Shown: positions 31,568-47,435 of the stretch, piece after piece
How the letters are laid out: every line of letters begins with the position of its first letter
How positions within the stretch are numbered: the stretch's first letter is position 1
DNA from: Gemmatimonas sp.
GTDB taxonomy: Bacteria; Gemmatimonadota; Gemmatimonadetes; Gemmatimonadales; Gemmatimonadaceae
Length of the DNA: 64,000 bases
Direction of reading: 5' to 3'
Assembly (NCBI GenBank): GCA_965279375.1
Contig: OZ257156.1
Location: 2,720,001 to 2,784,000 of the forward strand
The notes under the pieces: model-generated
What the model was told of the DNA's origin: nothing
What the model saw: the letters and a program-made list of their open reading frames with translations, nothing else
Databases searched by the model: none
Program-made: the position numbers and the translations under genes

Positions 31568-33487
31568 TTACCCCTCGGCGTCGGTTTCCGGGGCGATCAC
31601 GCGCGGCGGACGCTTGGCGTGCTGCATGCGCTCGGCGCGTTCCGACCACTCCGCCTTTCCTTCGGCGCGCTCACGCACCGGGCGGTCGCCAAAGGCGAGA
31701 CGCGCCTCATCCGCACGCACGGGGCCACGTCCGGCGCCGCCACGCGGCGGTCCCGAACGCGGACCACGATCTCCACCGCGCTCGCCGCCGCGGTCAGGGC
31801 CACGGCTGGCACCGCGTTCGCCGCGATCGTCGCGTCCACCTTCGCGGGGTGTCCACTCACGCGGGCCGCTGCTGCGCGGCGCACGCTCACCACGCTCCCC
31901 ACGGTCGCTGCGATCGAAGCTGCGCACCGGACGATCGCCACCACGCGCACTGCCAGACCGATCGCCGCGATCGCCACGATCCGCGCGCGGCGGACCGAAC
32001 GTGCGCTCCTTGCGCGGGGCACGCTCGCCACCGCGTTCGTCGATGCGCGCGCTCAGACGGCGGCCGCGCAACGTGGAATCGGAAAGCGCCGCCACAACCT
32101 TCGCCGCGTCTTCTGCGGCGAGTTCGACGATGCTGTGCGACTCGAACAGCTCCACCGTTCCGATCCGTTCGCCGGGGATGCCGGCTTCGTTGGCAACCGC
32201 GCCGACGATGTCACCGACGCGCACCATGTCGCGCTTGCCGACGGCGAGAAATACGCGCGCCTGACCGGGACTGCCGACGTTACCCGACACCACCGCCAGT
32301 CCACCGCGCGACGGTGCGGCCGGCGCGACGCGCGCCGATGCGTTGGCGACCTTGGCGCGGAGCGTTACCGCGTCGCGGCGGGCGCCTTCAAACAGACGCA
32401 GCGCGGCGGCCGCGATCTCGAGAGCATCGTGCGTGTCGAGGAGCGGCGCGAGCAGCGCCATCTCGCTCGCCGAGGCACCGCCGGCGTTGGCCAGCGTCGC
32501 ACGCAATGCGGTGCGCAACGCGCGCGTGCGGCTTTCGGCGGCTTCTTTGCGGACCGGCGGCGTCCAGACTTCGGCGAGGCCGTTGGTCAGGCGACGGAAT
32601 GCCGGCAACTCGTCGGGGAGGAGCAGCGCGACCGCGTCCACCGGACGCGTGGCGATCGCTTCGGCGAGCGCTTCGGCCGTCGCTGGCGTCTCCCACAGTA
32701 CGACGAGCGAGACGTGCTGCGACGTCGGCTGCTTGACCACCTGCACCGCGTGTCCATCGACCGTGAGGCCAAGGCGCTCGAGCGACTGCTGGGCATCGCG
32801 CATGCCGTGGTCCGTTGCGGCCACGACCACGAGCGACGGCGGGTCGGTGGCATCGAGCACAGCGCGCAGCGTGTCGGCGCGGCCGGCTGCGGTGGTGATG
32901 GCGTAGCTCGGCGTCATTGCGAGCGGCGTGTCGCTGGCCAGCGAGAGCGAGAGACGGCGGGCGCGGCGGAGATACGCTTCGAGAAACGCCTCGGTTTCCG
33001 GCGTGTCTTCTTCGATGGTGACGACGCGCTGCAGTTCGTCCGGCGCATCGCCGAGCAGGGCGCGAATGGATTCTTCGCCGCCGTCGCGCAGGATGTCATC
33101 GAGGCCGATGACGATGGCAGCGCGGAGCGATTCGAGACTGAACGCGGATGCGCGGCGCAGCTCGAGGAGGTCGGAGGCGGTGCCGACGATCACGGCGACC
33201 GGGCCCGAGGCGATCACGCGCTTGGCGCGGGCCACGGCGCTGACGGGCACGACACGCAGGGTGTCGTTGGCCAGGAGCAGGCGGGCCTGCTCGGCGGCGC
33301 TGAGCGCCTGTTCGATGGAGGGGGTGACGACGATGCACGCTGGCGCGGTGCCGTCCTGTTCACGACTGCGCTCCAACCCCGAGCGCATGGCGGCGGACAT
33401 CGTCCGCACATCGGCTGGACCTTGCAGCACCACATGCTGGCTGCGCGTTGCCCCGGCCCCCGGGGTCTCCCGTTCTTGCTCGCCCAC
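31568..33487 (-). CDS. DbpA-type RNA-binding-domain protein with a degenerate DEAD-box-like core (pseudo-helicase)
   Basis: C-terminal FLAVGKRDMVRVGDIVGAVANEAGIPGERIGTVELFESHSIVE plus an RG-rich tail. N-terminal remnants VVTPSIEQA, VIVGTASDL, SLESLRAAIVIGLDDIL. Confidence 0.8.
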   Translation of the reverse strand: MGEQERETPGAGATRSQHVVLQGPADVRTMSAAMRSGLERSREQDGTAPACIVVTPSIEQALSAAEQARLLLANDTLRVVPVSAVARAKRVIASGPVAVIVGTASDLLELRRASAFSLESLRAAIVIGLDDILRDGGEESIRALLGDAPDELQRVVTIEEDTPETEAFLEAYLRRARRLSLSLASDTPLAMTPSYAITTAAGRADTLRAVLDATDPPSLVVVAATDHGMRDAQQSLERLGLTVDGHAVQVVKQPTSQHVSLVVLWETPATAEALAEAIATRPVDAVALLLPDELPAFRRLTNGLAEVWTPPVRKEAAESRTRALRTALRATLANAGGASASEMALLAPLLDTHDALEIAAAALRLFEGARRDAVTLRAKVANASARVAPAAPSRGGLAVVSGNVGSPGQARVFLAVGKRDMVRVGDIVGAVANEAGIPGERIGTVELFESHSIVELAAEDAAKVVAALSDSTLRGRRLSARIDERGGERAPRKERTFGPPRADRGDRGDRSGSARGGDRPVRSFDRSDRGERGERAPRSSGPREWTPREGGRDDRGERGASRGPDRGGERGGDRGPRSGPPRGGAGRGPVRADEARLAFGDRPVRERAEGKAEWSERAERMQHAKRPPRVIAPETDAEG

Positions 33488-35213: not shown

Positions 35214-36194
35214 CTAGCCTTGGCAGCGCGTCCGGTTGTAGCGCGTCGTTTCCAGCCACACCTCGCCGTCGTACTTGAGCACCATCGTCAGCAACGGTGC
35301 GACCTTGCCGCGCGCGCCAAAAAGAATCTCGGGGCGCCCGTCACCGTCCACGTCCACGTGATCCAGGTAGGCGAGACGCGGCGTGGTCTTGGCGTTGCCC
35401 ACCGTCGCGTAGATCCAGGTGGTCCGATAGCCGAACATGGCATAATCGAGCACCATCGCCACGTTACGCGGGCGCTGACCGTCCAGCAGCGTGGTGTCGG
35501 GCAGCACCTCGGGGTCTTCGTAGACCACCACCAGCGTGGGGTGCTTGCCGAGTCCGTTGTTGACCTGCCGGACGGTGCGTGTGTAGTGCGAGAGTGCGGA
35601 GATGGGAATGCCGGCGCGCGGCGTGACCAGCGTGGAGAGATTCGCCAGTGCCGCGGACATCTGCGCCTCGTTGAAGAACTGCAACGGGGCTATGGCCGGG
35701 CGGGCGCTGGTCGTCAGGATGCGCACGCCCTCCGGCAGCTTTGCCAGTCCGCTCGGCACAATCACCTGACAGTTGGGAATCGAGTCGAGCGGCGGGCCGG
35801 ACTCGCCCCACATGCCGCGCGTCATCGTCACCGGCGGCAGGCTGCGCCCGTCCTTGACGGGGACCAGCGTGTTGGGATTGTGGAGGGCGAGCAAATCCAA
35901 TGCCTTCCAACCGCGATCGCCGAGTCGCAGCGGCGTGAAGCCCTTCGGCCCGATCGTTGCGAGCGGTACGATCTCGGCCCCCTTGTCCGTATCGATCACC
36001 CGGTAGAGCACTTGCGGGTCGCTGAAAATCTTGGCGCTGTCTGACCGCCAAACCGGATCGAACTCCTCCGTCTCGCCCAGCATGCGCTTCAGGCGCTGCT
36101 TCACCTTTCCGCACGACGTCGCGAATGGCAGTACTGCGACGAGGAGCAACGTGAGGGCACGCGCCGGACGGGGGACGAGGACAGCGAAACGCAT
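35214..36194 (-). CDS. Hypothetical lipoprotein with a C-terminal FG-GAP-like DxDGDG loop
   Basis: MRFAVLV...LPFATSC lipobox; DHVDVDGDGRPEILF. Confidence 0.72.
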   Translation of the reverse strand: MRFAVLVPRPARALTLLLVAVLPFATSCGKVKQRLKRMLGETEEFDPVWRSDSAKIFSDPQVLYRVIDTDKGAEIVPLATIGPKGFTPLRLGDRGWKALDLLALHNPNTLVPVKDGRSLPPVTMTRGMWGESGPPLDSIPNCQVIVPSGLAKLPEGVRILTTSARPAIAPLQFFNEAQMSAALANLSTLVTPRAGIPISALSHYTRTVRQVNNGLGKHPTLVVVYEDPEVLPDTTLLDGQRPRNVAMVLDYAMFGYRTTWIYATVGNAKTTPRLAYLDHVDVDGDGRPEILFGARGKVAPLLTMVLKYDGEVWLETTRYNRTRCQG

Positions 36195-36330
36195 TGAGGG
36201 GAAATCGGATTGAGACGGTGAACAGGAAGTCGTATGGCGAAGTCTAGCGACCACCGAGCGATCGTGCGTCCGTCGAGCGTGACGTGACGGCGACACGTGA
36301 CCGAGAGAGCACGCATTGTGAGCACGACGT

Positions 36331-37428
36331 GTGGTCGCTACCCTCCCGTTCGTGTTAGACGAGCGAGACGGTCCATTGGGTCACGAACGCGCCGACGCGA
36401 GCGCCGATAGCGCGCTGGCGCTGCCAGCGGTCCTGCGCGCGCTGCGGCCGATCGTTGGCGACGGGGCGGTGATGGCCGCGGGGAGCGCGCCGGCCCTCGA
36501 GCGGCTGTCTGTCTCCGCCGATCCGCCCAGTGTCTCCCGCTGCGACCCGCTGGAGCGGGATGGCGCGCGGGCTGTCTCGATGCAAGCGCCGACTGCCGTG
36601 CGGGCGTTTCTGGACGGCATCCAGCGCAGCCGCCTGGTTGGGCATGTGGGCGGCGCGCCGCTTGTCTTTGGCACAGTCGCCGCGGTGGTGCGCCAGCGCG
36701 AGAATCGTCGGCTCGTCACATGGCAGACCCCGCGTATCCGGCGCGCACTCTTCGCCTCGCGCGTGCAGCTGGGAGAAGCGGTCTGGTCGCGGCTCCGCCA
36801 GACCGCCATTCCGCTCGTGGACGTGACGGAGTCGACACCCGAGGACGCGGTGTCCCCGCATCCGATGGCGATTCGGGCGCGGGCGCTCGAACTGGTGGCG
36901 CTCGAACGCGAACAGGCCGAACGACAGCTCGCGGCGGCATGGTGTGCGTCCGAGCGCGACTGGCTGTGGGTGGACGGCGGCATCGCCGGCAATCTGGCCA
37001 TCGACGAGAACGCGACCGCGTTTGGCGTGGTGAAGTCGCACAACACGCTCTACGGTGATACGGCATCGGTGCGCGCCGTGCTTGCCCTGCGCACGGGGGA
37101 ACGCTCGCCGGCCTTTCTCGCGGGACATCGACCGCGTCGCGCCGTCGCCAGCTGGTACGTCCGGTTGCGCGATGCCTCCAACGGCGATCCGTTACACGGA
37201 CTCGTACGCGTGGAAGTGGCTCCGCCGGTCGCGTTGCTCGACAGTGTCGAGGGTAGCATCGCACGCCAACGGGCACTCGAGGAATTCTCGGCGCACGTTG
37301 ATCAACTCTCGTCGTGGATTCTCGCGGAGCGCGCGCCGCTTGCACTCCCCGATCCCCGCTGGGACACGCTCACCTACGGCGTGTATGCCTGCGAGCAGTA
37401 CCTCAAGTCCATCATCGGTTCCTCGTGA
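36331..37428 (+). CDS. nurA: NurA-family 5'-3' nuclease (bacterial type)
   Basis: Two acidic motifs FLDGIQR and WVDGGI, plus GVVKSH, GERSPAF, SWYVRL, GLVRVE, DPRW...EQYL; directly upstream of herA. Start uncertain. Confidence 0.8.
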   Translation: MVATLPFVLDERDGPLGHERADASADSALALPAVLRALRPIVGDGAVMAAGSAPALERLSVSADPPSVSRCDPLERDGARAVSMQAPTAVRAFLDGIQRSRLVGHVGGAPLVFGTVAAVVRQRENRRLVTWQTPRIRRALFASRVQLGEAVWSRLRQTAIPLVDVTESTPEDAVSPHPMAIRARALELVALEREQAERQLAAAWCASERDWLWVDGGIAGNLAIDENATAFGVVKSHNTLYGDTASVRAVLALRTGERSPAFLAGHRPRRAVASWYVRLRDASNGDPLHGLVRVEVAPPVALLDSVEGSIARQRALEEFSAHVDQLSSWILAERAPLALPDPRWDTLTYGVYACEQYLKSIIGSS

Positions 37429-37461
37429 TGTTTTCAAGTTGTTCCTGACCAGCTGCCCGCC

Positions 37462-39453
37462 GTGAACACGCCCACACCACCAGACGTCACCAACGCCACG
37501 CGCCTTCCACTCGGCCGCGTCGTCGCGACCGAGCGCAAGCCGAACACGCCGCACGAGTTCCACTTCTGGACCGCGATCGATGCGCCGGTTGGCATCGGCA
37601 CGATCGTGTGCGTGGAGGGGCCAGTGCCGGTGGGCGCGGTGATTCCGCGCGTCTACGGCGTGGTGATGGAAGGCTTCAGCTACTCGGATCTGCAGTCGCC
37701 GCTGCACGACGTACTGGGACACGATGGGCAGCCGAGCGGAAGCGCGTTTGCCGCGACGGACCGAACGGAGATTCGGCTGTACACCGCGCAGGTCCTGCGG
37801 CATGTGCCTGAGGAACCGCTGCAGCCGGTTCCACTAGGCGCTGTGTATCTCGCGGATGATGCCGACGTGGCCGTGGCGCTGCGCATGGACAGCTACATCA
37901 CCAACGAGCCAACGACTGGCATCCCCATCGGAGTGTATCGCGCGGGCGGCATGCGCTCACCGATTTTCGTCGACGCGGATTTTCTCGTTGGGCCCGAGGC
38001 CGCGCATCTGAACATCTCCGGTGTGTCGGGGCTCGCCACGAAGACGAGCGCAATCGAGTGGATCCTGCAGAGCATCTTTGCGCACTTCCCCGCGCATCGT
38101 GGCACCGTTGCCGCACTCTGCTTCAACGTGAAGGGTCCGGACCTCTGCTTTCTCGACCAGCCGGGACAGCTGCAGGACGCCGATCGCGAGCTGTACGAAC
38201 TGCTCGACGTGCCCGCGATACCGTTTCAGGATGTGCAGTACTTCGCCCCGTACACGGCGCGTGGCCTCGCGCTCAACACGCTGCGCACGCACCCGGATCT
38301 CGTGGACAGCGTGTCGCCACTGACGTGGGGGCTGAACGAAGTGCTGCAGTTCGCGGAAGTGCTGCTCAACAAGGACGACGTGGACGCCAAGGCCGACGCC
38401 TTGATCGACTTCATTCGCGAACGTGTGGTCGGCAAGGACCTCGAAGAAGCGGGCTTCGCGCGTGTGCATCGCGTGCAGTCGTTCGCCGATCTCGACGCAT
38501 GGTTCCGCGAAGTGCTGCGCAAAGTGGAAGACTCCAACGGCGACACGTGGCGTACGCATCACGCGGCGACGATTCGCAAGGTCCGCAATCGCCTCAGCAA
38601 TCTCTCCACGCGCTGCGCCGGTCTCGTCACCGACGACGGCGTGGTGTCGGATCTGCCGTTCGGCGCGTTCACCGATCGTACGGTGTATGTGGTGGACGTC
38701 GCGAACGTCGAGGAGAGCGCGCAGGATCTCGTCTTCGCGCGCACCGTCTCCAAGCTGCGCGAACATCTCGAGCGACGAGATCTTGGCGTCGATCATGTGA
38801 TCGTCTTCGTGGATGAGCTCAACAAGTACGCGCCGGGCGACGGACCCGACACGTACGTGCGCAAGATGCTGCTCGACATCGCCGAACGCGGTCGGTATCT
38901 GGGGCTCGTCCTTTTTGGCGCACAGCAGTTCCGTTCGCAGGTGCATCGTCGCGTGGTGGGCAATGCGGGCACCACGCTCTATGGCCGCATGGACGGTGAC
39001 GAACTGGCGTCCCCCGGGTATCAGGTGCTGAGTCCTGCCGTGAAGGCACGACTCGCCACGCTCGAGAAGGGACAACTGATGGTGCGTCATCCGCATTTCG
39101 CGCAGCCGGTGTTCGTGCGATTCCCTCGTCCCGCTGTGATGAGTGGTCGCGAAGGTGTGGAGCGATTCCCGCAGGCACCTGAGCCATCTGTGGCACATGC
39201 GGTCACGCGGGACCTTCGGCGACTCGATGGTGGTATCGAACTGGGTTGGGTGCAGCAAACCATTCTGCTGTACGAAGAGAGCGAGGTGTTGGCCGCGCGG
39301 AACGCCGTCATGCGGCGACGTCCCGAGGACGTGAAGGCGACGTTCGCTCGTGAACTGCAGCGGCGTGCGAGACCAGGTGCGGTAGACGCGGAAGCCATCG
39401 CGCCCCGACCGAGGACGCTGCGCGCATTCTCCCCGGAGGAGTACGGTGGCTAG
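37462..39453 (+). CDS. herA: HerA-family ATPase/DNA translocase
   Basis: N-terminal HAS-barrel-like region, deviant Walker A HLNISGVSGLATKTS, FNVKG, Walker B VFVDELNKYAP, ERGRYLGLVLFGAQQ. Confidence 0.9.
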   Translation: MNTPTPPDVTNATRLPLGRVVATERKPNTPHEFHFWTAIDAPVGIGTIVCVEGPVPVGAVIPRVYGVVMEGFSYSDLQSPLHDVLGHDGQPSGSAFAATDRTEIRLYTAQVLRHVPEEPLQPVPLGAVYLADDADVAVALRMDSYITNEPTTGIPIGVYRAGGMRSPIFVDADFLVGPEAAHLNISGVSGLATKTSAIEWILQSIFAHFPAHRGTVAALCFNVKGPDLCFLDQPGQLQDADRELYELLDVPAIPFQDVQYFAPYTARGLALNTLRTHPDLVDSVSPLTWGLNEVLQFAEVLLNKDDVDAKADALIDFIRERVVGKDLEEAGFARVHRVQSFADLDAWFREVLRKVEDSNGDTWRTHHAATIRKVRNRLSNLSTRCAGLVTDDGVVSDLPFGAFTDRTVYVVDVANVEESAQDLVFARTVSKLREHLERRDLGVDHVIVFVDELNKYAPGDGPDTYVRKMLLDIAERGRYLGLVLFGAQQFRSQVHRRVVGNAGTTLYGRMDGDELASPGYQVLSPAVKARLATLEKGQLMVRHPHFAQPVFVRFPRPAVMSGREGVERFPQAPEPSVAHAVTRDLRRLDGGIELGWVQQTILLYEESEVLAARNAVMRRRPEDVKATFARELQRRARPGAVDAEAIAPRPRTLRAFSPEEYGG

Positions 39454-39471
39454 GGGTCAGGTAGTCGAGCG

Positions 39472-40362
39472 GTGAATACAGCAGGCAAGCGGGCCCTCGT
39501 CCTCGCGGCGATGCTTGGCATGCAAGGCATGCCGGTGGCAGCGCTCGATGCCCAGAGTGCGCGTGGCGCCGAGTCGGTGCAGTTGGTCGTGCGTCCACAC
39601 GTTGGTGATACGCTCTGGCTGCTGATGGAGCAGAGCATCGAAGTGCGCGCGAGTGCCGCCGTGGCGGGCCCGAGGCGCACACGCCCGTTCGAGCGGCCAG
39701 CGCGGATGCAACTGTTTGCACATACCACGGTGGAATCGGGCGACCTTGCCGCGACCACGATGATCGCGACGACCGACTCGATGCTGCTCACCTCCGCAAC
39801 GAGTTCGGCGGTGAGTGCGCCGACGGGCGCATCCGCGAACGACGAACCGACTGCACGACGCATGTTCTCTGCGGCCGATGGTCGGCAACTGCGTGTGCGC
39901 GTCGCGCCGGACGGTGCCATGCGCATCAACGATCCGCCGCCGTCGGCGATCGACCTTGGTTCCACGCTGTCGGCGATGCCGGGCATGCTCCCCGATCGTC
40001 CCGTGCGCGTCGGCGATCAGTGGGACCGTGATATCCCGCTCCCTTCGGTCCCCATCAACGGTTTCCGCGCCGACGGCGTGCTACGCACCCGTTTCAGATT
40101 GGACTCGCTTACTCGGCGAGGCCGACAGGCGTGGATCTCAATGGAGGGCACGCTGCAGCGCAGCGGCGGTACTCGCGAACTTCCGGTGGGCACGCGTGCG
40201 GTCTCGGAAGGATCGGTGCGCGGCACGCTCGTCGTCGATCGCGATCGGGGGTGGATCGTGGATGCGCGCACCGTCATCGATGTGCAGGTGGAGCCGACGA
40301 TCGGTGCGGCCGGCGCCACGCCGTTCGATTTGCGGATTCTCCAGCGCGTCCGCGCGCGCTAG
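39472..40362 (+). CDS. Exported beta-rich hypothetical protein
   Basis: Sec-type signal peptide ending ALDA/QS; LPDRPVRVGDQW; alternating strands. Fills the herA-mre11 gap on the same strand. Confidence 0.72.
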   Translation: MNTAGKRALVLAAMLGMQGMPVAALDAQSARGAESVQLVVRPHVGDTLWLLMEQSIEVRASAAVAGPRRTRPFERPARMQLFAHTTVESGDLAATTMIATTDSMLLTSATSSAVSAPTGASANDEPTARRMFSAADGRQLRVRVAPDGAMRINDPPPSAIDLGSTLSAMPGMLPDRPVRVGDQWDRDIPLPSVPINGFRADGVLRTRFRLDSLTRRGRQAWISMEGTLQRSGGTRELPVGTRAVSEGSVRGTLVVDRDRGWIVDARTVIDVQVEPTIGAAGATPFDLRILQRVRAR

Positions 40363-40436
40363 CACGCATCCCGCGCGACGAAGACGCGCGCTCCTCCGCG
40401 CTCCCGGGGGCATGGACGAGGGCGCTAGCTTGAGGG

Positions 40437-41639
40437 ATGCGACTCGTCCACCTCTCCGACCTGCACCTGGGCTTCCGGCAGTATCAGCGGCTGACGCCGG
40501 GTGGCATCAATCAGCGTGAGGCAGATGTGGGCGACACGTTCCAGCGTGCGATCAAGCAGATCGCCGAGCTGGCGCCCGACGTGATCGTTGTAGGCGGTGA
40601 CGTCTTTCACACGGTACGTCCCTCCAATCCGGCCATCCTGCGCGCGTTTCGCGTCTTCGCGGCGCTACGCGACCAGCTTCCCGACACGCCGGTCATCATG
40701 GTCGCCGGCAATCACGACGCCCCACGCACCACGGAAACCGGCTGTATCCTGCGTCTCTTCCGCGAGCTGGGTGTGTACGTGGCCGATGCCAAGGCCGAGC
40801 TGTTCACCTTTCCCTCGCGCTCGCTGGCCATCCTCGCTGTGCCCGACGTGCCGGGGATGGATCGGCCGCCGCTGCTCCCGCCCGAGGGGTTCGAGCACCG
40901 CGTGTTGCTGCTGCACGGCGAGGTCGCCGGCATGCTCCCCGCGCACGCCGCGCCCGCCGATCGTGCGGCCATCGAAATCCGCACCGAGGAGCTGCACGCC
41001 GAACAGTGGAGCTACATCGCACTGGGCCACTACCACGTCTATCGCGAAGTGGCGACGCGCGCGTACTACAGCGGGTCGCTCGACTACACGAGTTCCAACC
41101 CGTGGGGCGAGCTTCGAGAAGAGCGTGAGAATCGCGTCCCGGGCAAAGGGTTCATCGAGCACGATCTGCGCACGGGCGCGCATCGGTTTCATCCCGTTGC
41201 TCCATCTCGACCGCTGCTCGACCTCGAACCGATCGACGCCGACGGCATGGGCGCCGCAGAGGTGGATGCGGCACTCAGCGCGCGCATCGAGAGTGTCGCC
41301 GGCGGCATCGACGATCACGTGGTGCGAGCCGTGGTGCGCAACATTCCGCGCCACATCGTGCGCGATCTCGACCACGTCGCGCTGCGCGAGTATCGCAAGC
41401 GCGCGATGCACTTCCACCTCGACACGCGCCGCCCCGAACCCGTGCGCCGCAAAGGGGGCGGGGAAGGAGCACCGGGACGCAGGGCAACGCTACCGGAACT
41501 CGTTGCTGATCGACTGCAGGAGCGCGTGCTGCCACCAGAAGTCGATCGCGACACGCTGGTGACGCTGGGGCTCCGCTACTTGCAGCAAGCCGAGGAAGCC
41601 GCCGTGGCTGCGCTCCCCGTGACGGACGGCGTGCAATGA
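40437..41639 (+). CDS. sbcD: Mre11/SbcD metallophosphoesterase nuclease
   Basis: SDLHLG, GGDVFH, AGNHD, LLHG, ALGHYH, YSGS, KGF. Confidence 0.93.
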   Translation: MRLVHLSDLHLGFRQYQRLTPGGINQREADVGDTFQRAIKQIAELAPDVIVVGGDVFHTVRPSNPAILRAFRVFAALRDQLPDTPVIMVAGNHDAPRTTETGCILRLFRELGVYVADAKAELFTFPSRSLAILAVPDVPGMDRPPLLPPEGFEHRVLLLHGEVAGMLPAHAAPADRAAIEIRTEELHAEQWSYIALGHYHVYREVATRAYYSGSLDYTSSNPWGELREERENRVPGKGFIEHDLRTGAHRFHPVAPSRPLLDLEPIDADGMGAAEVDAALSARIESVAGGIDDHVVRAVVRNIPRHIVRDLDHVALREYRKRAMHFHLDTRRPEPVRRKGGGEGAPGRRATLPELVADRLQERVLPPEVDRDTLVTLGLRYLQQAEEAAVAALPVTDGVQ

Positions 41640-41676
41640 GTCGCGCTCGTACCGGTGGGCTGCGTGCGAAGCGGGA

Positions 41677-44097
41677 GTGCGCGTGCGACTGATCTCGCTC
41701 CGCCTACAGAACTTCCGTCAGCATGCTGATACGCGTCTGACGTTCGATCGCGGTCTGACGGGCATCATCGGCCCCAATGGATCCGGCAAGTCCACTCTTC
41801 TCGAAGCGATCGCGTGGGCGCTCTACGGCAACGCGGCTGCGCGCGGCACCCGCGATTCGATTCGCTTCTCGCGCGCCGCTGCACGCGCTTCTGTGCGCGT
41901 GGAACTGGAGTTCGAGCTGGCGGGACATCGCTATCGCGTCGTGCGCGGACTCACCAGCGCCGAGTGCTTCCTCGACGGTGGCGAGACGCCGATCGCGAAT
42001 ACGATCTCGGGTGTCAGCGAACTGTTGCAACGCCGGCTCGGCATGTCGCGCGCCGAGTTCTTTCACACCTACTTCACTGGCCAGAAAGAACTCGATGTCA
42101 TGGCCGCGCTTGGGCCCGCCGAGCGCGCGCGCTTTCTCTCGCGCGTACTGGGCTACGATCGCATTACAACCGCGCAGGAGCTCGTGCGCGAACGGCGGCG
42201 TGCGCTCACCGCCGAGCTGAATGGACTCAAGCAGGCGATGCCGGACCGCGAGACGGTGCATCGCAACGTCGCCGACGCCGAGACGCGCCTACGCGCCGCA
42301 CAAGCGCGTTTGCGCGATGCGCAGTTGCAGTACACGGCTGCCACGCAGTCGCTCGCAGCTGTCTCTCCACGTTGGACGGTGGCGCAGTCGGAGCGGGAAC
42401 GCGCGCAGCAGCTCTTGGCCGAGCGGCGCCTCGCCGAGAACGACGTCAGTTCGTTCACGCGCGATCTGGAGCGGTTGGCGCAGGAGACATCGGCGATAGA
42501 GTCGGCGCAGCAGGAGCTGGCGCCGTTGCTCGTGACGCTGGCGCCGTTGGCGACGATGCAGGCGGAGCTGCTCGAGTTCGATCGGCTGGCCGCTGCAGAC
42601 TCCACTCGGCAAACGCTCGTGGAACGCGCGCGCGCACTCAACGAGGAAGACGCGCGCTACGCGGAGCGCATGACCAAGCTGGAAACGGCCCCGGCACTCG
42701 AAGTCGAGACGCAGAAGCAGCTGACCACCGCGCGGGCGCAGCTTGTCGCGGTGGAGCAATCGCTGGAGACGGAGCGGACTGCGTGGGTGCGCGACAAGCA
42801 GGAGGCCGAGACTCGGTTGGAGTCGTTGCGCACGCAGTACACCGAGCTGACCGAGCAGCGCGACACGCTCGAGGGGTTGGGGGAGGAGAGTCCGTGCCCC
42901 ACCTGCGGGCGTCCACTCGGTGCCTCGTATCGCAGCGTGCTTGAACTGCTCACGGAGCAGGTCGAAGTGGTCCGCACCGATGGCAACTACTATCGGCAGC
43001 GCGTGGAGCAGCTGAGGCGCACACCAGAGGTTGTGGAAACGCTCGACGAGCAGCGCAAGGCGGCGCAGCAGGACGTGTCCAGCAGCGAGCGACGGTTAGG
43101 GAAGATTCAGGACGCGGTCAAGGAGCTCGCCGAACTGGGCAAGCAGCGAGCGGATCGCGCCAAGCTCCTCGAAGAAGCGCGCGCGACCGTGGCAGCCTTG
43201 CCGACCGGGTACGATGCCGCACGCCACGCGACGCATCGGGTGGATGTGGCGCGCCTGAGCGAAGTCAGCACGCGCGCCGCCCGTCTCTCGGGACTGGTGG
43301 AGCGAGCGGGCACCACGCAGATCGAGCGTGAGCGCGTGCGCGCGCTACGCGACAGCGCGATGACCAAGGTGCAGACGCTCGAAGAGCAGGCCGGATCCCT
43401 GCCGCAGGGCGACACCGACTACCTCGCGATTCGTGATGCGTTCGAGCAGGCCGAGCTTCAGGCGCGGCGCGCGGAGCTGGAGTCGGTGAGCGCGACGGCG
43501 GAAGTCACGCGCACAAGCAGCGAAGTCGAGAACGCCCAACGGGTGCGTGTGGAGCTGATGCGATTGGAAGAGTCGCAACAGCGACTCGAGTCGGAACGCC
43601 GGCTACACGATGAGCTCGATCGCGCGTTCACCGACCTGCGCACCGACCTCAACTTCCAGCTGCGTCCGGAGCTGGCCGAAATCGCCAGTGGGTTCCTCGA
43701 CTCCCTGACTGACGGGCGATACAACGCCCTCGAGTTCGATGAGGACTACAACCTGCTGGTGCTGGAGGAGGGCGTGCCCAAGCCCGTCATCTCCGGTGGT
43801 GAAGAAGATCTGTGCAATCTCGTGTTGCGTCTGGCCATTTCCCAGATGATCGCCGAGCGCGCGGGACAGGCCTTCTCGCTGCTGATTCTGGATGAAGTCT
43901 TCGGTTCGCTGGATGATACTCGGCGCGGCAACGTGATCGACCTGCTGCGTCGCCTGAACGATCGCTTCGAACAGGTGATCGTGATTACACATATCGAGCA
44001 GGTGCGGGAGGGACTGGATCGGGTGCTCGTGGTGCGCTTCGACGAGGAACGCGGCACGAGCGTCGTGACCGCGGGGACGGAGGCGCTGGTCGAGTAG
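41677..44097 (+). CDS. sbcC: Rad50/SbcC SMC-family ATPase
   Basis: Walker A GPNGSGKST, Q-loop FTGQ, long coiled coils, central Zn hook CPTC (42895-42906), signature ISGGE, Walker B/D-loop LILDEVFGSLD, VITH. Confidence 0.95.
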   Translation: MRVRLISLRLQNFRQHADTRLTFDRGLTGIIGPNGSGKSTLLEAIAWALYGNAAARGTRDSIRFSRAAARASVRVELEFELAGHRYRVVRGLTSAECFLDGGETPIANTISGVSELLQRRLGMSRAEFFHTYFTGQKELDVMAALGPAERARFLSRVLGYDRITTAQELVRERRRALTAELNGLKQAMPDRETVHRNVADAETRLRAAQARLRDAQLQYTAATQSLAAVSPRWTVAQSERERAQQLLAERRLAENDVSSFTRDLERLAQETSAIESAQQELAPLLVTLAPLATMQAELLEFDRLAAADSTRQTLVERARALNEEDARYAERMTKLETAPALEVETQKQLTTARAQLVAVEQSLETERTAWVRDKQEAETRLESLRTQYTELTEQRDTLEGLGEESPCPTCGRPLGASYRSVLELLTEQVEVVRTDGNYYRQRVEQLRRTPEVVETLDEQRKAAQQDVSSSERRLGKIQDAVKELAELGKQRADRAKLLEEARATVAALPTGYDAARHATHRVDVARLSEVSTRAARLSGLVERAGTTQIERERVRALRDSAMTKVQTLEEQAGSLPQGDTDYLAIRDAFEQAELQARRAELESVSATAEVTRTSSEVENAQRVRVELMRLEESQQRLESERRLHDELDRAFTDLRTDLNFQLRPELAEIASGFLDSLTDGRYNALEFDEDYNLLVLEEGVPKPVISGGEEDLCNLVLRLAISQMIAERAGQAFSLLILDEVFGSLDDTRRGNVIDLLRRLNDRFEQVIVITHIEQVREGLDRVLVVRFDEERGTSVVTAGTEALVE

Positions 44098-44167: not shown

Positions 44168-45055
44168 CTACGATTGCTTCCCGGTCTCGCTGGTCGGCGC
44201 TTCGTAGCGCGCGACGCCAAGACGCCCCTGTTTGGCGACGTACATCGCGGAATCGGCGAGCTTGCACAACGTTTCGGCCGTGGTGCCGTCGTCAGGGAAG
44301 ACGGCGACGCCTACGCTCGCGCCAACGGACACGCGGAGTTCGTCGATCTCGCACGGCTGGGCGACGTGATCCACGAGCGCGGTGGCGAACTGGATCGCGG
44401 CCGCATCATGCTGCAGCTCGAGCATGAGAATCAGGAACTCGTCGCCACCCCGTCGCCCGACGCTGTCGCCGCCACGCACAAAGCTGCTCAGCCGCTGCGC
44501 GACTACTTGCAGTACGCGATCACCGATGTCGTGGCCATGCGTATCGTTGATCAGCTTGAACCCGTCCAGGTCGAGAAAGAGGACGGCTAGCCGCCATTCA
44601 TGACGTCGCGCCTGCTCCAGCGCCGTTTCCAGACGATCGGCAAACAGCGTGGCGTTTGGGAGCTCCGTGACGGCGTCGTGCAGCGCGCGATGTCGCGCCG
44701 CCTCCTCGGAGGCTCTGCTTTCCAGCAGCGCCGAATCGCTCTCTGATACGCGGAGCTCGAGGGCGTCGCGCTCGGCGACTTCCTCCACCAGCGCTTCCTT
44801 GACCGCGACGAGTTCCTGCGCCGCTTGCTGCACCTTGGTCTCGACAACGACACTCTGCAGGAGCGCCTGCTCCACCTCGATCGATGGCGGATTGGCCGCA
44901 ACGTCGTTGGAGAGAGCAGCGTTCACACGCGCGAGATCCTGCGCCGCTTCCTCGACCTTTTCTTTGACTTGCTCGCTCCGGTCGATGGCGCGATGCAGCG
45001 GCGGCGTGTGAGGGGGCAGCGGCGTGGGAGGGGGCGTACGGTGGCTTCGTGACAT
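44168..45055 (-). CDS. Diguanylate cyclase with N-terminal coiled coil
   Basis: HDAVTELPN, DLDGFKLINDTHGHDIGD, I-site RGGD five residues before GGDEF. Start estimated. Confidence 0.92.
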   Translation of the reverse strand: MSRSHRTPPPTPLPPHTPPLHRAIDRSEQVKEKVEEAAQDLARVNAALSNDVAANPPSIEVEQALLQSVVVETKVQQAAQELVAVKEALVEEVAERDALELRVSESDSALLESRASEEAARHRALHDAVTELPNATLFADRLETALEQARRHEWRLAVLFLDLDGFKLINDTHGHDIGDRVLQVVAQRLSSFVRGGDSVGRRGGDEFLILMLELQHDAAAIQFATALVDHVAQPCEIDELRVSVGASVGVAVFPDDGTTAETLCKLADSAMYVAKQGRLGVARYEAPTSETGKQS

Positions 45056-45332
45056 CGCGCCTGCGCTCCTGCAGAGGTCGTCCAGCGATCGTTCAAAGCG
45101 GTCAAGAGGTCGTCGGTCGATCATCGGCCACGAAGACCCCGAGTCGGACCGTCTCGCCGCCCGTTTCCTGCGGCGGCTCCTGCACGACACCTCAGGGAAG
45201 GTAGCCTCGCGCGCATGCGGACATCGCATGCTGACATCGCATGCGGACACGCTGGCAGGCGATATTTCCGACTCGAGCGGGCTCGCGGCAAACTGGTGCG
45301 TGAGTCTTGCGAATACCGTCGCCTCGTTTGCC

Positions 45333-46274
45333 ATGACGCCAACTCGCCTTCAACGATCGCTTCGCGCGTGCGCCGCGATGTCCGCGCTGCTTGCGGTGAC
45401 AGGCACTGCCCAATCCGCAGGAGCGCAGCCCAACGTCATTCCGCATCGTGTGTGGGAGGCAACGCCACCGCTCGGCTATGCGGCCGACGCCACACGACGA
45501 AACAAGCGTGCAGGCGACTCGCTTGCCTTTCGTGAATTGATCGTGTCGGTGCTCGCCACGCGAGTGGATTCGAGCGGGCCCAAGCCGGTCGATGTGGCAC
45601 AACTGCGTCTCACACTGGGCAACGCATCCGAGACGCGGAATGCACGCGAAGGATCGGCGTTCAATTGGCGCGGATACCACGTGGCCGTCGTGGCAGTGTA
45701 CGGCCCTGGTGAACTCGGCGCGGGGCTCGCGGCTCTGGAGGTCGCGACGATCGCCTCGCTGCCACCAGCGATTGCCTCGTCGGACAGTGCCGGGGGCGCC
45801 GCCATGCGACTGCGCATTCCGCATCGCATCTCGTACGTCACGCTGCATCACACCGGCGATGCGCGGCCGCTTCTGCCCACCGACGACCCCGCGGCGAAGT
45901 TGCGCGCGTTGCAGACGTGGGGCGCTCGCGATCGAAACTGGTGGGATGTGCCGTATCACTTTCTGCTCGACCTCGATGGCCGCGCGTTCGAAGGCCGTGA
46001 CTGGCATTTCATGGGCGAGACCAATACCGCGTACGATCCAGGCGGCCACTTTCTCATCAGCGTTATTGGCAACTACGACCTGCAGGAACCCACAGCGGCA
46101 CAGCTCAACGCGATTGCCGATCTGATGGCGTGGGCCGTTCGAGAGTTCGACGTGCCATTGGGGCGCATTGGCGGCCACTACAACTACGCCGACTCCGGAT
46201 GCCCGGGGAAGGCGCTGCGGCGCTATCTCGAGGACGGCACCTTCCGGCGCATGGTCGCGGATCGGCTGCGCTAG
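45333..46274 (+). CDS. Exported N-acetylmuramoyl-L-alanine amidase (Amidase_2/PGRP-like)
   Basis: Signal peptide; TLHHTG, WDVPYHFL...FEGR, IGNYD, GHYNYADSGCPG (His/His/Cys Zn ligands). Confidence 0.88.
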   Translation: MTPTRLQRSLRACAAMSALLAVTGTAQSAGAQPNVIPHRVWEATPPLGYAADATRRNKRAGDSLAFRELIVSVLATRVDSSGPKPVDVAQLRLTLGNASETRNAREGSAFNWRGYHVAVVAVYGPGELGAGLAALEVATIASLPPAIASSDSAGGAAMRLRIPHRISYVTLHHTGDARPLLPTDDPAAKLRALQTWGARDRNWWDVPYHFLLDLDGRAFEGRDWHFMGETNTAYDPGGHFLISVIGNYDLQEPTAAQLNAIADLMAWAVREFDVPLGRIGGHYNYADSGCPGKALRRYLEDGTFRRMVADRLR

Positions 46275-46457
46275 CCGAGGTGGGGCCGCCACAGCGGAAT
46301 CGCAACAGCGCCCTCGGGGAATCGCGGGTGTTCCGCCGAAGTGGCATCGGGTTCCTCGACGCCCCACGCGACTTGCGCTACAATGACTTCAGTTGGCCAC
46401 GCGGCATTGCCCATCGACGCACGGTGCCGCACGAACGAGCGCTCCGAACCGGTTCAC

Positions 46458-47435
46458 GTGACAGCCACTCCACGCAGCTGGCGCAGTACCCGTCCCGTCG
46501 AGGGGCCCTTCGTTGCCTCCGTGCAGGACATCGACGGACTCAACGATGTCTTCTCCGACGCGTTCACCGAGCGCTACCGGCGCGACGGACTCACTGGCGT
46601 GCGCGTTCCGCCGCTCAATCCGTCCATCTGGCGCTACGCCATTGAAGATGCGGGCGATGGCGCGCTCTGCTGGCGCGACGAGCGCGGACGGATTGCGGCC
46701 TTCAACATCGTGCACCATTCAGGAACCGAAGGCTGGATGGGTCCGCTCTGTGTGCGTCCGGATCAGCAGGGCGCCGGACTCGGCAAGATCATCGTGCAGA
46801 GCGGCATGAACTGGCTGCGGAAGAACGAGGCCAAGGTCATTGGGTTGGAAACGATGCCGCGGACGATGGACAACATCGGCTTCTACTCGAATCTTGGCTT
46901 CGTCCCCGGCTATCTGACCGTCACGCTGACGCTCGATGCGGTTGCCGGTGATCGCGCGCCCACGTTGCTCTCGCGCTTCAACGCGGCGGACAAGAGTCTC
47001 GTGTTCGAGCGCTGTCGCGAGCTGACGCAGAGCGTGATGCCGGGCTACGACTTCACGCGCGAGCTCGAACTTACCGATCGTCTTGAACTCGGCGACACGC
47101 TGCTGCTGGGGACGCCGGACGCGTTGCGCGGATTTGCACTCTGTCACACCGCACCGCTGGTGGAAGGTCGCGCCCGTGACGAACTGCGTGTGCTCAAGCT
47201 CGTGCTCTCCAAGCGCACCGATTTGCCGCAGATGCTGGGCGCGCTCACCGATCTGGCGCGGCGCAGCGGTGCGCGACGGCTCGCGGTGCGACTACAGGGA
47301 GACTATCCCGACGCGTATCGCACCTTCGTGGCGCTCGGCGCGCGGGTGCGCTGGACCGATCTGCGCATGAGTGCCACCGGGTGGAGCGAAGTTGCGCCGA
47401 CCGACGGGATGGTGCTGTCGAACTGGGAGATTTGA
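46458..47435 (+). CDS. GNAT-family N-acetyltransferase (tandem GNAT-like)
   Basis: MGPLCVRPDQQGAGLGK acetyl-CoA motif A; NIGFYSNLGF. Start estimated. Confidence 0.88.
   Translation: MTATPRSWRSTRPVEGPFVASVQDIDGLNDVFSDAFTERYRRDGLTGVRVPPLNPSIWRYAIEDAGDGALCWRDERGRIAAFNIVHHSGTEGWMGPLCVRPDQQGAGLGKIIVQSGMNWLRKNEAKVIGLETMPRTMDNIGFYSNLGFVPGYLTVTLTLDAVAGDRAPTLLSRFNAADKSLVFERCRELTQSVMPGYDFTRELELTDRLELGDTLLLGTPDALRGFALCHTAPLVEGRARDELRVLKLVLSKRTDLPQMLGALTDLARRSGARRLAVRLQGDYPDAYRTFVALGARVRWTDLRMSATGWSEVAPTDGMVLSNWEI

Follow-up and report, generated by a model that had tools for sequence, protein, structure and literature searches.

A nurA-herA-mre11-rad50 locus conserved in the Gemmatimonadales and its possible role in DNA break repair

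The window analysed here is a 64,000-nt stretch (G000:C1:2720001-2784000) of the 5.31-Mb single-contig genome of a Gemmatimonas sp., and all coordinates below are window positions unless a contig is named. It contains five intact open reading frames in one orientation, 36331-37428, 37462-39453, 39472-40362, 40437-41639 and 41677-44097, for a NurA-like nuclease, a HerA-like ATPase, a predicted exported protein, Mre11 and Rad50. An initial annotation, made from the DNA letters alone, had proposed this co-oriented set with intergenic gaps of 33, 18, 74 and 37 nt, which the coordinates of the reading frames confirm, and had seen no strong internal hairpin, in agreement with the three spacers that were folded (z of -0.16, -1.89 and 0.20 against shuffled sequences). 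A hairpin in the 74-nt spacer was considered as a signal and discarded, as that spacer folds no better than its shuffles, and terminator-like sites occur in the locus at chance level (5 versus 4.9). GC content is even over the cluster region, and homologues of its proteins carry the names Gemmatimonas and Gemmatimonadaceae.

The first gene, nurA (36352..37428, + strand), would encode an RNase H-like nuclease of 358 residues. The frame is open from 36331, the position from which NurA residues are numbered here, and the GTG at 36352 is the more likely start because a TACCCT box lies 7 nt upstream of it and is conserved at 22 of 23 genus-level loci (genus- and family-level loci were grouped by protein identity). 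The protein reaches no Pfam family at E 0.1 and no NCBIfam model at 0.01, four distant NurA-like proteins likewise miss Pfam, and neither library seems to cover this branch of NurA; sequence searches of the PDB are weak as well, with E 0.2 to 1zup for the single sequence and 0.002 and 0.005, among unrelated matches, for a profile. A structure model built from 58 sequences (predicted local distance difference test score, 89.1) finds Deinococcus NurA (7f6d_G) as its best Foldseek match (E 3.2e-12) and aligns with it over 273 residues at Z 19.1 and a root-mean-square deviation of 3.9; Thermotoga 1zup gives Z 18.8, Sulfolobus NurA 13.5, and Argonaute and EndoV at most 9.6, so that the NurA-like nuclease of the initial annotation does have the RNase H-like fold expected of it. 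The model is also similar, at Z 13, to the TdpAB entries 8wfd and 8wet, which we take to have a role in defence. In an alignment of 94 sequences, which includes 10 from the distant four-gene clusters described below, the residues D95 (90/94), E197 (94/94), D215 (93/94), K235 (91/94) and R343 (94/94) are kept, with DG motifs at 93 (FLDG) and 214 (VDGG), a catalytic set likened to D53, K201 and R309 of Deinococcus radiodurans by motif rather than by residue-level superposition. The first motif aspartate is intact in this genome and altered in 4 of the 94 sequences (loci L049, L115, L129 and L177), to Asn in three and to Glu in one, and Lys235 is Arg in two of these.

The herA gene (37462..39453, +) encodes a HerA/FtsK-family ATPase of 663 residues whose only PDB sequence match is Deinococcus HerA (7f6d; phmmer E 1.7e-46), aligned over residues 16-293 and 338-567. 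A HAS-barrel and a RecA-like domain with Walker A, Walker B and catalytic acid are present, and K194, T195, D227, D451 and E452 are invariant in 47/47 sequences, which bears out the annotation of a HerA ATPase. No Pfam or NCBIfam model is reached here either, and because this holds for both proteins the identity of NurA and HerA rests on fold and PDB matches. The motifs that had been assigned to the Deinococcus/Thermus clade, SGVSGLATKTS (186), FVDELNKY (449) and GAQQ (486), are indeed present, but the protein falls in a clade of its own and is missing two pore arginines. The positions of Deinococcus R495 and R552, each of which is required for resection (PMC9960219), are G459 and S517 in this protein and basic in 0/47; R491, after the GAQQ motif, is invariant, and residue 467 is always basic (467/468 being basic positions). 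Where the Gemmatimonadales protein reads GAQQFRSQVHRR, that of Deinococcus and of the distant four-gene clusters reads GAQQTASEVERR. Judged by its sequence, then, Gemmatimonadales HerA is a distinct subfamily, because both of the arginines that Deinococcus HerA needs are missing, and either its grip on DNA would have moved or its translocation would be weak. Identity across the order is 60-86%, and a quick tree, made without archaeal or Deinococcus rows, tracks host families; the HerAs of the distant four-gene clusters, 27-35% identical, form a separate clade, carry a Deinococcus-like motif and keep R495 in the 4/4 shown.

The mre11/sbcD gene (40437..41639, +) encodes a metallophosphoesterase nuclease of 400 residues (Pfam Metallophos, E 2.9e-12) with phosphoesterase motifs I-IV (SDLH, GGDVFH, GNHD, LHG, GHYH) and with D8, H10, D55, H93, H160 and H200 invariant in 47/47. 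It is adjoined in the mapped loci by rad50/sbcC (here 41677..44097, +, although the start may be the second GTG, at 41683), which encodes an 806-residue ABC ATPase with a coiled coil and a Zn hook. Walker A (32), the hook CPTC (407), signature (705), Walker B (735) and H-loop (769) are all in place, and CPxC is found in 98/99 sequences, so that the annotated pair, with its Zn hook at mid-protein, is complete in its motifs. The best PDB match of Mre11 is the Mre11 entry 3auz (E 1.8e-17), SbcD entries being weaker, and Rad50 scores E 7e-50 with the NCBIfam Rad50 model PRK03918 versus 7e-29 with the sbcC model TIGR00618, both under cut-off; the two proteins thus favour models and structures named Rad50 and Mre11, which we take to be archaeal, over SbcC and SbcD, a statement of similarity and not of tree position. 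Elsewhere, three loci of family f7 (L206, L207 and L208) have a paralogue of Mre11 that is more distant, at about 33-35% identity, and is followed by a gene that matches only the hook region of Rad50, and one locus (L040, G015:C84) has a second mre11-rad50 pair, 45-52% identical and without the GNAT gene discussed below, which may be assembly contamination.

The wider distribution was followed in a draw of 221 genomes from the phylum: this one, 152 others of its order (Gemmatimonadales by record titles; f1-f3 among our family labels f1-f12) and 68 from outside it, many of them metagenome assemblies for which 'not found' does not equal 'absent'. The HerA ortholog is present in 137 of the 152 and in 2 of the 68, with a distant HerA in 22 more outside the order. 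A search for mre11 covered 80 of the 139 ortholog carriers, namely all of f1 except G181, the two outside the order and 42 of f2 taken by contiguity, and in 77 of them the two genes share contig and strand, herA being upstream; the remaining three have them on different contigs. The distance is under 300 nt in 24 genomes, under 1.3 kb in 42, under 4 kb in 9 and greater in 2. Wherever the 80 named loci leave room to test, nurA (64/64) and mre11 (61/61) are there, so that the survey of synteny suggested with the initial annotation finds the linkage conserved. In a first sample of relatives, rad50 was in 41/41 genomes and nurA in 21/41, and nurA-herA is cleanly gone from the locus in G004, G005, G009, G011, G013, G095, G182, G083, G115 and G118, likewise in G241, G067, G120 and family f3, while G134 (L177) keeps nurA without herA. 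The nurA-herA pair is dispensable in several lineages. All 7 Gemmatimonas genomes confirmed to be without it at the locus carry RecC, an enzyme common in the genus.

RecBCD and AddAB are the standard break-trimming enzymes, and their distribution leaves only part of the proposal standing that this lineage resects its breaks with a complete Mre11-Rad50-HerA-NurA machine: most herA-positive genomes of the order show neither enzyme, yet an AddAB-like pair is found in the present genome, and nurA-herA has been lost repeatedly. Neither enzyme was found in 109 of the 137 herA-positive genomes of the order, or in 103 if every match is counted; the figure of 109 takes as AddB-like only long frames and sets aside eight short or unrelated-frame matches (one in a genome that has RecC), and G181 is within both the 137 and the 109. 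A PD-(D/E)XK nuclease match of AddB type (E 1e-11) occurs in 32/152 genomes of the order versus 65/68 outside it, and RecC in 10/152; in family f3, AddAB-like genes are present in 3 of 7 genomes tested and fragments in 2. The pair of this genome, at C1:4665219-4671520, is an addB-addA-like arrangement with UvrD and PD-(D/E)XK domains, for which the AddB and AddA models of NCBIfam are the best, under cut-off. RecJ and FtsK are also encoded, and RecC, RQC-type RecQ and Ku were looked for in the genome and not found.

Five contiguous genomes in which neither RecBCD nor AddAB was found were inspected further. No AddA-like helicase was seen among the larger UvrD matches checked, these frames being UvrD-exonuclease fusions, IrrE-UvrD fusions and a methylase-linked helicase. 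Among genomes searched for the respective genes, RecJ and FtsK are present in 5/5, and the idea of HerA as a stand-in for FtsK was dropped accordingly; an RQC-type RecQ was found in none of 5, which leaves the classic route through RecJ and RecQ incomplete. It is likely, then, that in most Gemmatimonadales genomes searched the NurA-HerA-Mre11-Rad50 set together with RecJ is the main end-processing route, and that in the present genome it works beside the AddAB-like enzyme. Within the phylum draw, RecC is found in 7/8 Gemmatimonas genomes versus 1/104 in family f2, and many Gemmatimonas carry recC-recB, in contrast to the AddAB-like pair of this genome, which suggests that members of the genus have exchanged their resection enzymes. 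The idea that many Gemmatimonas have no resection enzyme at all proved wrong, the weak matches being RecB beside RecC; recC-recB pairs lie at L067, L068, L069, L070, L073 and L074.

Two predicted -10 boxes of the form TANNNT would each start a leaderless transcript, one for nurA (TACCCT, 36339..36344, +, 7 nt before GTG 36352) and one for mre11-rad50 (TAGCTT, 40426..40431, +, 5 nt before ATG 40437). The conservation of the former noted above compares with 0/23 for a shifted control. The latter is found 5-7 nt before mre11 at 37/38 genus-level, 7/37 family-level and 5/33 other loci, and TANNNT precedes mre11 at 50/108 over all loci, against 1/108 when shifted, 0/98 before rad50 and 0/46 before tdk. 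Across the genome the motif is enriched before ATG at gaps of 5-7 nt (39, 76 and 35 versus about 13), which suggests that Gemmatimonas makes many leaderless mRNAs, as do Deinococcus-Thermus and Actinomycetota; in Deinococcus, a TANNNT motif 6-7 bp before the reading frame is a leaderless promoter (PMC12340547). A sigma-70 scan of the locus gave no promoter, but such a scan depends on a -35 box and overlooks sites with a -10 box only. The locus probably holds two transcription units, nurA-herA-X (X being the exported protein) and mre11-rad50, possibly extending into the GNAT gene, with read-through possible between them, and this arrangement would explain both the clean deletions of nurA-herA and the inserts that are tolerated. 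The cluster thus remains one locus whose linkage is kept in relatives, as first described, whereas its reading as a single operon has become doubtful, mre11 having a predicted -10 box of its own. Separate transcription of the two pairs, which these boxes make likely, is among the outcomes that the initial annotation had named as speaking against its reading.

The same four gene families stand together in the archaeal herA-mre11-rad50-nurA operon of Sulfolobus, Pyrococcus and Thermococcus (PMC13748450, PMC2288612, PMC3326311), and archaeal Rad50, Mre11 and HerA co-precipitate (PMC2288612). The locus here differs in its order, nurA-herA-X-mre11-rad50, in the bacterial type of its NurA and HerA, in its likely two promoters, in the dispensability of nurA-herA and in the presence of FtsK and RecJ. 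In Sulfolobus islandicus the archaeal operon is reportedly essential. The likeness is one of parts list, and membership as one co-transcribed and coupled operon of the archaeal kind is unproven. Among bacteria, the NurA-HerA of Deinococcus radiodurans (PDB 7F6D, 7WRW, 7WRX) is the best structural match for NurA and shares its catalytic residues; it differs in having R495 and R552 in HerA, and the linkage of nurA-herA to mre11-rad50 in Gemmatimonadales is a further difference. The same bacterial layout, nurA-hepA(herA)-sbcD-sbcC, is already in print for Oceanithermus profundus, where sbcD and sbcC follow hepA and were likened by the authors to the archaeal system (PMC5448004), and the linkage occurs in other phyla too, as the initial annotation had warned it might. 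There it is an untested remark in passing on one species, whereas the Gemmatimonadales have the locus fixed throughout the order, interrupted by a gene for an exported protein and with separate promoters predicted for the two pairs.

Distant four-gene clusters, with adjacent nurA, herA, sbcD and sbcC on one strand, are found at f7 loci L077-L082 and L086, in 6 of the 7 in the order herA-sbcD-sbcC-nurA (the sbcD frame at L080 was not resolved), and in all 4 records opened of the 6 that HerA matched in a plasmid collection: Sphaerospermopsis AP018315, Chlorohelix NZ_CP128402, Streptomyces NZ_CP134205 and Nonomuraea NZ_LT559118, of the Cyanobacteriota, Chloroflexota and Actinomycetota. They differ from the Gemmatimonadales locus in their weakly similar SbcCD, in an often different gene order, and in being patchy, at variable sites, partly on plasmids and, in f7, beside AddAB-type genes. 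Such recurrent clusters contradict a 2026 review which denies stable synteny in bacteria (PMC13748450). On two plasmids (L169 and L170) the distant cluster adjoins an ImmA/IrrE metallopeptidase gene, with TIR, HEPN and DUF2397/TIGR02678/TIGR02680 genes nearby, a setting that looks defence-island-like. A literature search on NurA/HerA or RecBCD/AddAB in Gemmatimonadota, which covered articles and not their supplements, returned nothing on this locus.

We put at slightly better than one half, roughly 0.52, the probability that NurA-HerA and Mre11-Rad50, each pair with its own likely promoter, serve a common pathway of break repair. In this scheme a DNA end that is broken or blocked would be bound and opened by Mre11-Rad50 and fed by a predicted HerA ring to NurA, itself predicted to be a dimer, which would trim the end so that RecA can load; RecJ would extend the resection or share in it. 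The proposal starts from demonstrated features of the locus, namely gene identity, intact catalytic motifs, one inherited chromosomal site, linkage throughout the order and the rarity of RecBCD/AddAB in it; the 6:2 ring, ATP-driven translocation, resection of the 5' strand and hand-over from Mre11-Rad50 we infer from Deinococcus and archaeal work, and the cooperation of the two pairs is likewise inferred. The best argument for functional coupling is that the clustering of the four genes recurs with different paralogues. The cluster itself is no surprise, and its value comes from the order-wide scarcity of RecBCD/AddAB and from natural combinations that can be tested; to a layout already described in Oceanithermus, the present analysis adds the RecBCD/AddAB pattern, the repeated losses, the separate predicted promoters, the difference in the HerA pore and the passenger gene. 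NurA-HerA has no settled role in bacteria, as Deinococcus and Thermus knockouts give little or inverse phenotypes. Natural test cases are at hand in the Gemmatimonadales, where mesophilic genomes that encode NurA-HerA and Mre11-Rad50, and in which RecBCD, AddAB and RQC-type RecQ were not detected, have close relatives showing all the other combinations. If it is real, the proposed pathway would be a fourth bacterial route of resection.

A considerable list of observations weighs against a common pathway. The present genome has its AddAB-like pair, the two gene pairs have separate predicted promoters, and inserts between herA and mre11 reach 16 kb. The unrelated neighbours aspC, GNAT, queD and folE match the herA-mre11 link in conservation; inertia may thus explain why linkage persists within the order, where it is by itself no proof of function. 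A four-gene tree of Gemmatimonas implies at least three separate losses of nurA-herA, and a relaxed evolution of Mre11 and Rad50 after such losses, which was sought, gave no speed-up, the Rad50 ratio of 1.09 equalling that of the GNAT control. A strict complementarity between nurA-herA and RecBCD/AddAB within the order is unsupported (Fisher p 0.10, with genomes that are not independent): RecBCD and AddAB are likewise undetected in 9 of the 15 herA-negative genomes, and the order-level pattern is one evolutionary event. HerA is without both of the pore arginines on which resection depends in Deinococcus. Finally, Deinococcus and Thermus NurA-HerA knockouts are not more sensitive to damage (PMC9960219, PMC12977600), and Thermococcus HerA-NurA, for which an antiviral role has been proposed, cuts both strands (PMC12977600). 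A more sweeping history, in which Gemmatimonadales gave up AddAB and came to repair breaks by an archaeal-style combination of Mre11-Rad50 and HerA-NurA, with an archaeal-like Mre11-Rad50 pair and a rewired HerA pore, and in which lineages regaining RecBCD or AddAB tend to drop nurA-herA, is, in our estimate, doubtful.

Several of these points would sit comfortably with the two pairs being neighbours and not partners, separately transcribed and acting apart: Mre11-Rad50 would do the work of SbcCD on hairpins and blocked ends, RecJ and UvrD would resect, NurA-HerA would modulate recombination, perhaps via RecJ, and slow rearrangement would account for the linkage. The two -10 boxes, the clean losses of nurA-herA with mre11-rad50 kept in 41/41 relatives, a GNAT gene linked as tightly, RecJ in 5/5, herA-negative genomes without a canonical machine and unchanged Mre11 and Rad50 rates after loss all agree with it, as does an interaction of HerA with RecJ in Deinococcus, reported in an article that leaves open whether SbcCD works with NurA-HerA (PMC4663267). 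We still consider it somewhat unlikely, since clusters of the four genes recur in Oceanithermus and in four other lineages, in the latter with other paralogues and another gene order, and since a RecJ-RecQ route is incomplete where RQC-type RecQ is missing in 5/5.

It seems improbable that the main task of the set is to degrade linear DNA entering with phages or plasmids, taking over the degradative role of RecBCD rather than making ends ready for recombination. The two-strand cutting and antiviral proposal for Thermococcus (PMC12977600), the similarity of the NurA fold to TdpAB, the plasmid-borne distant version beside IrrE-like, TIR, HEPN and DUF2397 genes and the repeated loss of nurA-herA would all fit, but a fixed chromosomal site among housekeeping genes with even GC, a HerA tree that tracks host families and carriage by 137/152 genomes do not, and PADLOC returned no NurA match and for HerA only a weak one (mad8, E 3e-6). 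Most improbable of all is that Gemmatimonadales HerA is no longer a processive translocase on double-stranded DNA and has become a scaffold, gated by ATP, through which NurA is activated for nicking or for short trimming of ends, as the 47/47 sequences without a basic residue at either essential arginine position and the R495 kept by the distant version might suggest, given that the invariant R491 and basic 467/468 could substitute and that the ATPase residues are invariant in a protein 60-86% identical across the order.

The exported protein gene between herA and mre11 (39472..40362, +, 296 residues) is DUF6263-like (Pfam E 2.7e-5, below cut-off; Atlas DUF6263 clusters at 0.95-0.96), and the single N-terminal hydrophobic stretch of its product is likely a signal peptide. 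It occupies this position in 52/61 testable loci. Since it is retained where nurA-herA has been lost and is missing from some genomes that have all four genes, it is a passenger gene. Upstream, the cluster is bounded by a divergent conserved gene (35214..36296, -), which keeps its position in family-level relatives whether nurA-herA is present or not. Downstream, a GNAT acetyltransferase gene (46341..47435, +; Pfam) usually lies directly 3' of rad50, within 300 nt in 46/46 and 37/43 testable related loci, and is tied to rad50 throughout the order, including loci without nurA-herA. No TANNNT box precedes it (0/90 loci), so it is likely co-transcribed with mre11-rad50. Here it is shifted by 2.2 kb, with a GGDEF gene (44168-45334, -; Pfam) and an Amidase_2 reading frame (45024-46274, +; Pfam) forming a block (44168-46274) that is likely a recent insertion between rad50 and GNAT. 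The flanking block tdk-aspC-lrp ... GNAT-queD-folE is conserved in relatives too. Further upstream, a conserved gene (31568-33487, -) encodes a DbpA RNA-binding domain and an Arg/Gly-rich tail, has no helicase match in Pfam and looks like a degenerate DEAD-box protein.

Some other proteins were encountered among the genomes searched. In 4 of the 5 contiguous genomes without RecBCD/AddAB (L182-L185), a UvrD helicase of about 970-990 residues with an inserted DEDDh (RNase_T) domain is a possible further helicase-nuclease, and Ku genes occur in three of the genomes without RecBCD/AddAB. UvrD proteins with an N-terminal IrrE-like domain (Peptidase_M78) are encoded at L072:6135-9614 and L181:4092-7697, one of them with a C-terminal PD-(D/E)XK domain, and L076:4883-10849 (G067) carries Cas3-like and Cas4-Cas1 fusion genes, the source of a false AddB-type match.

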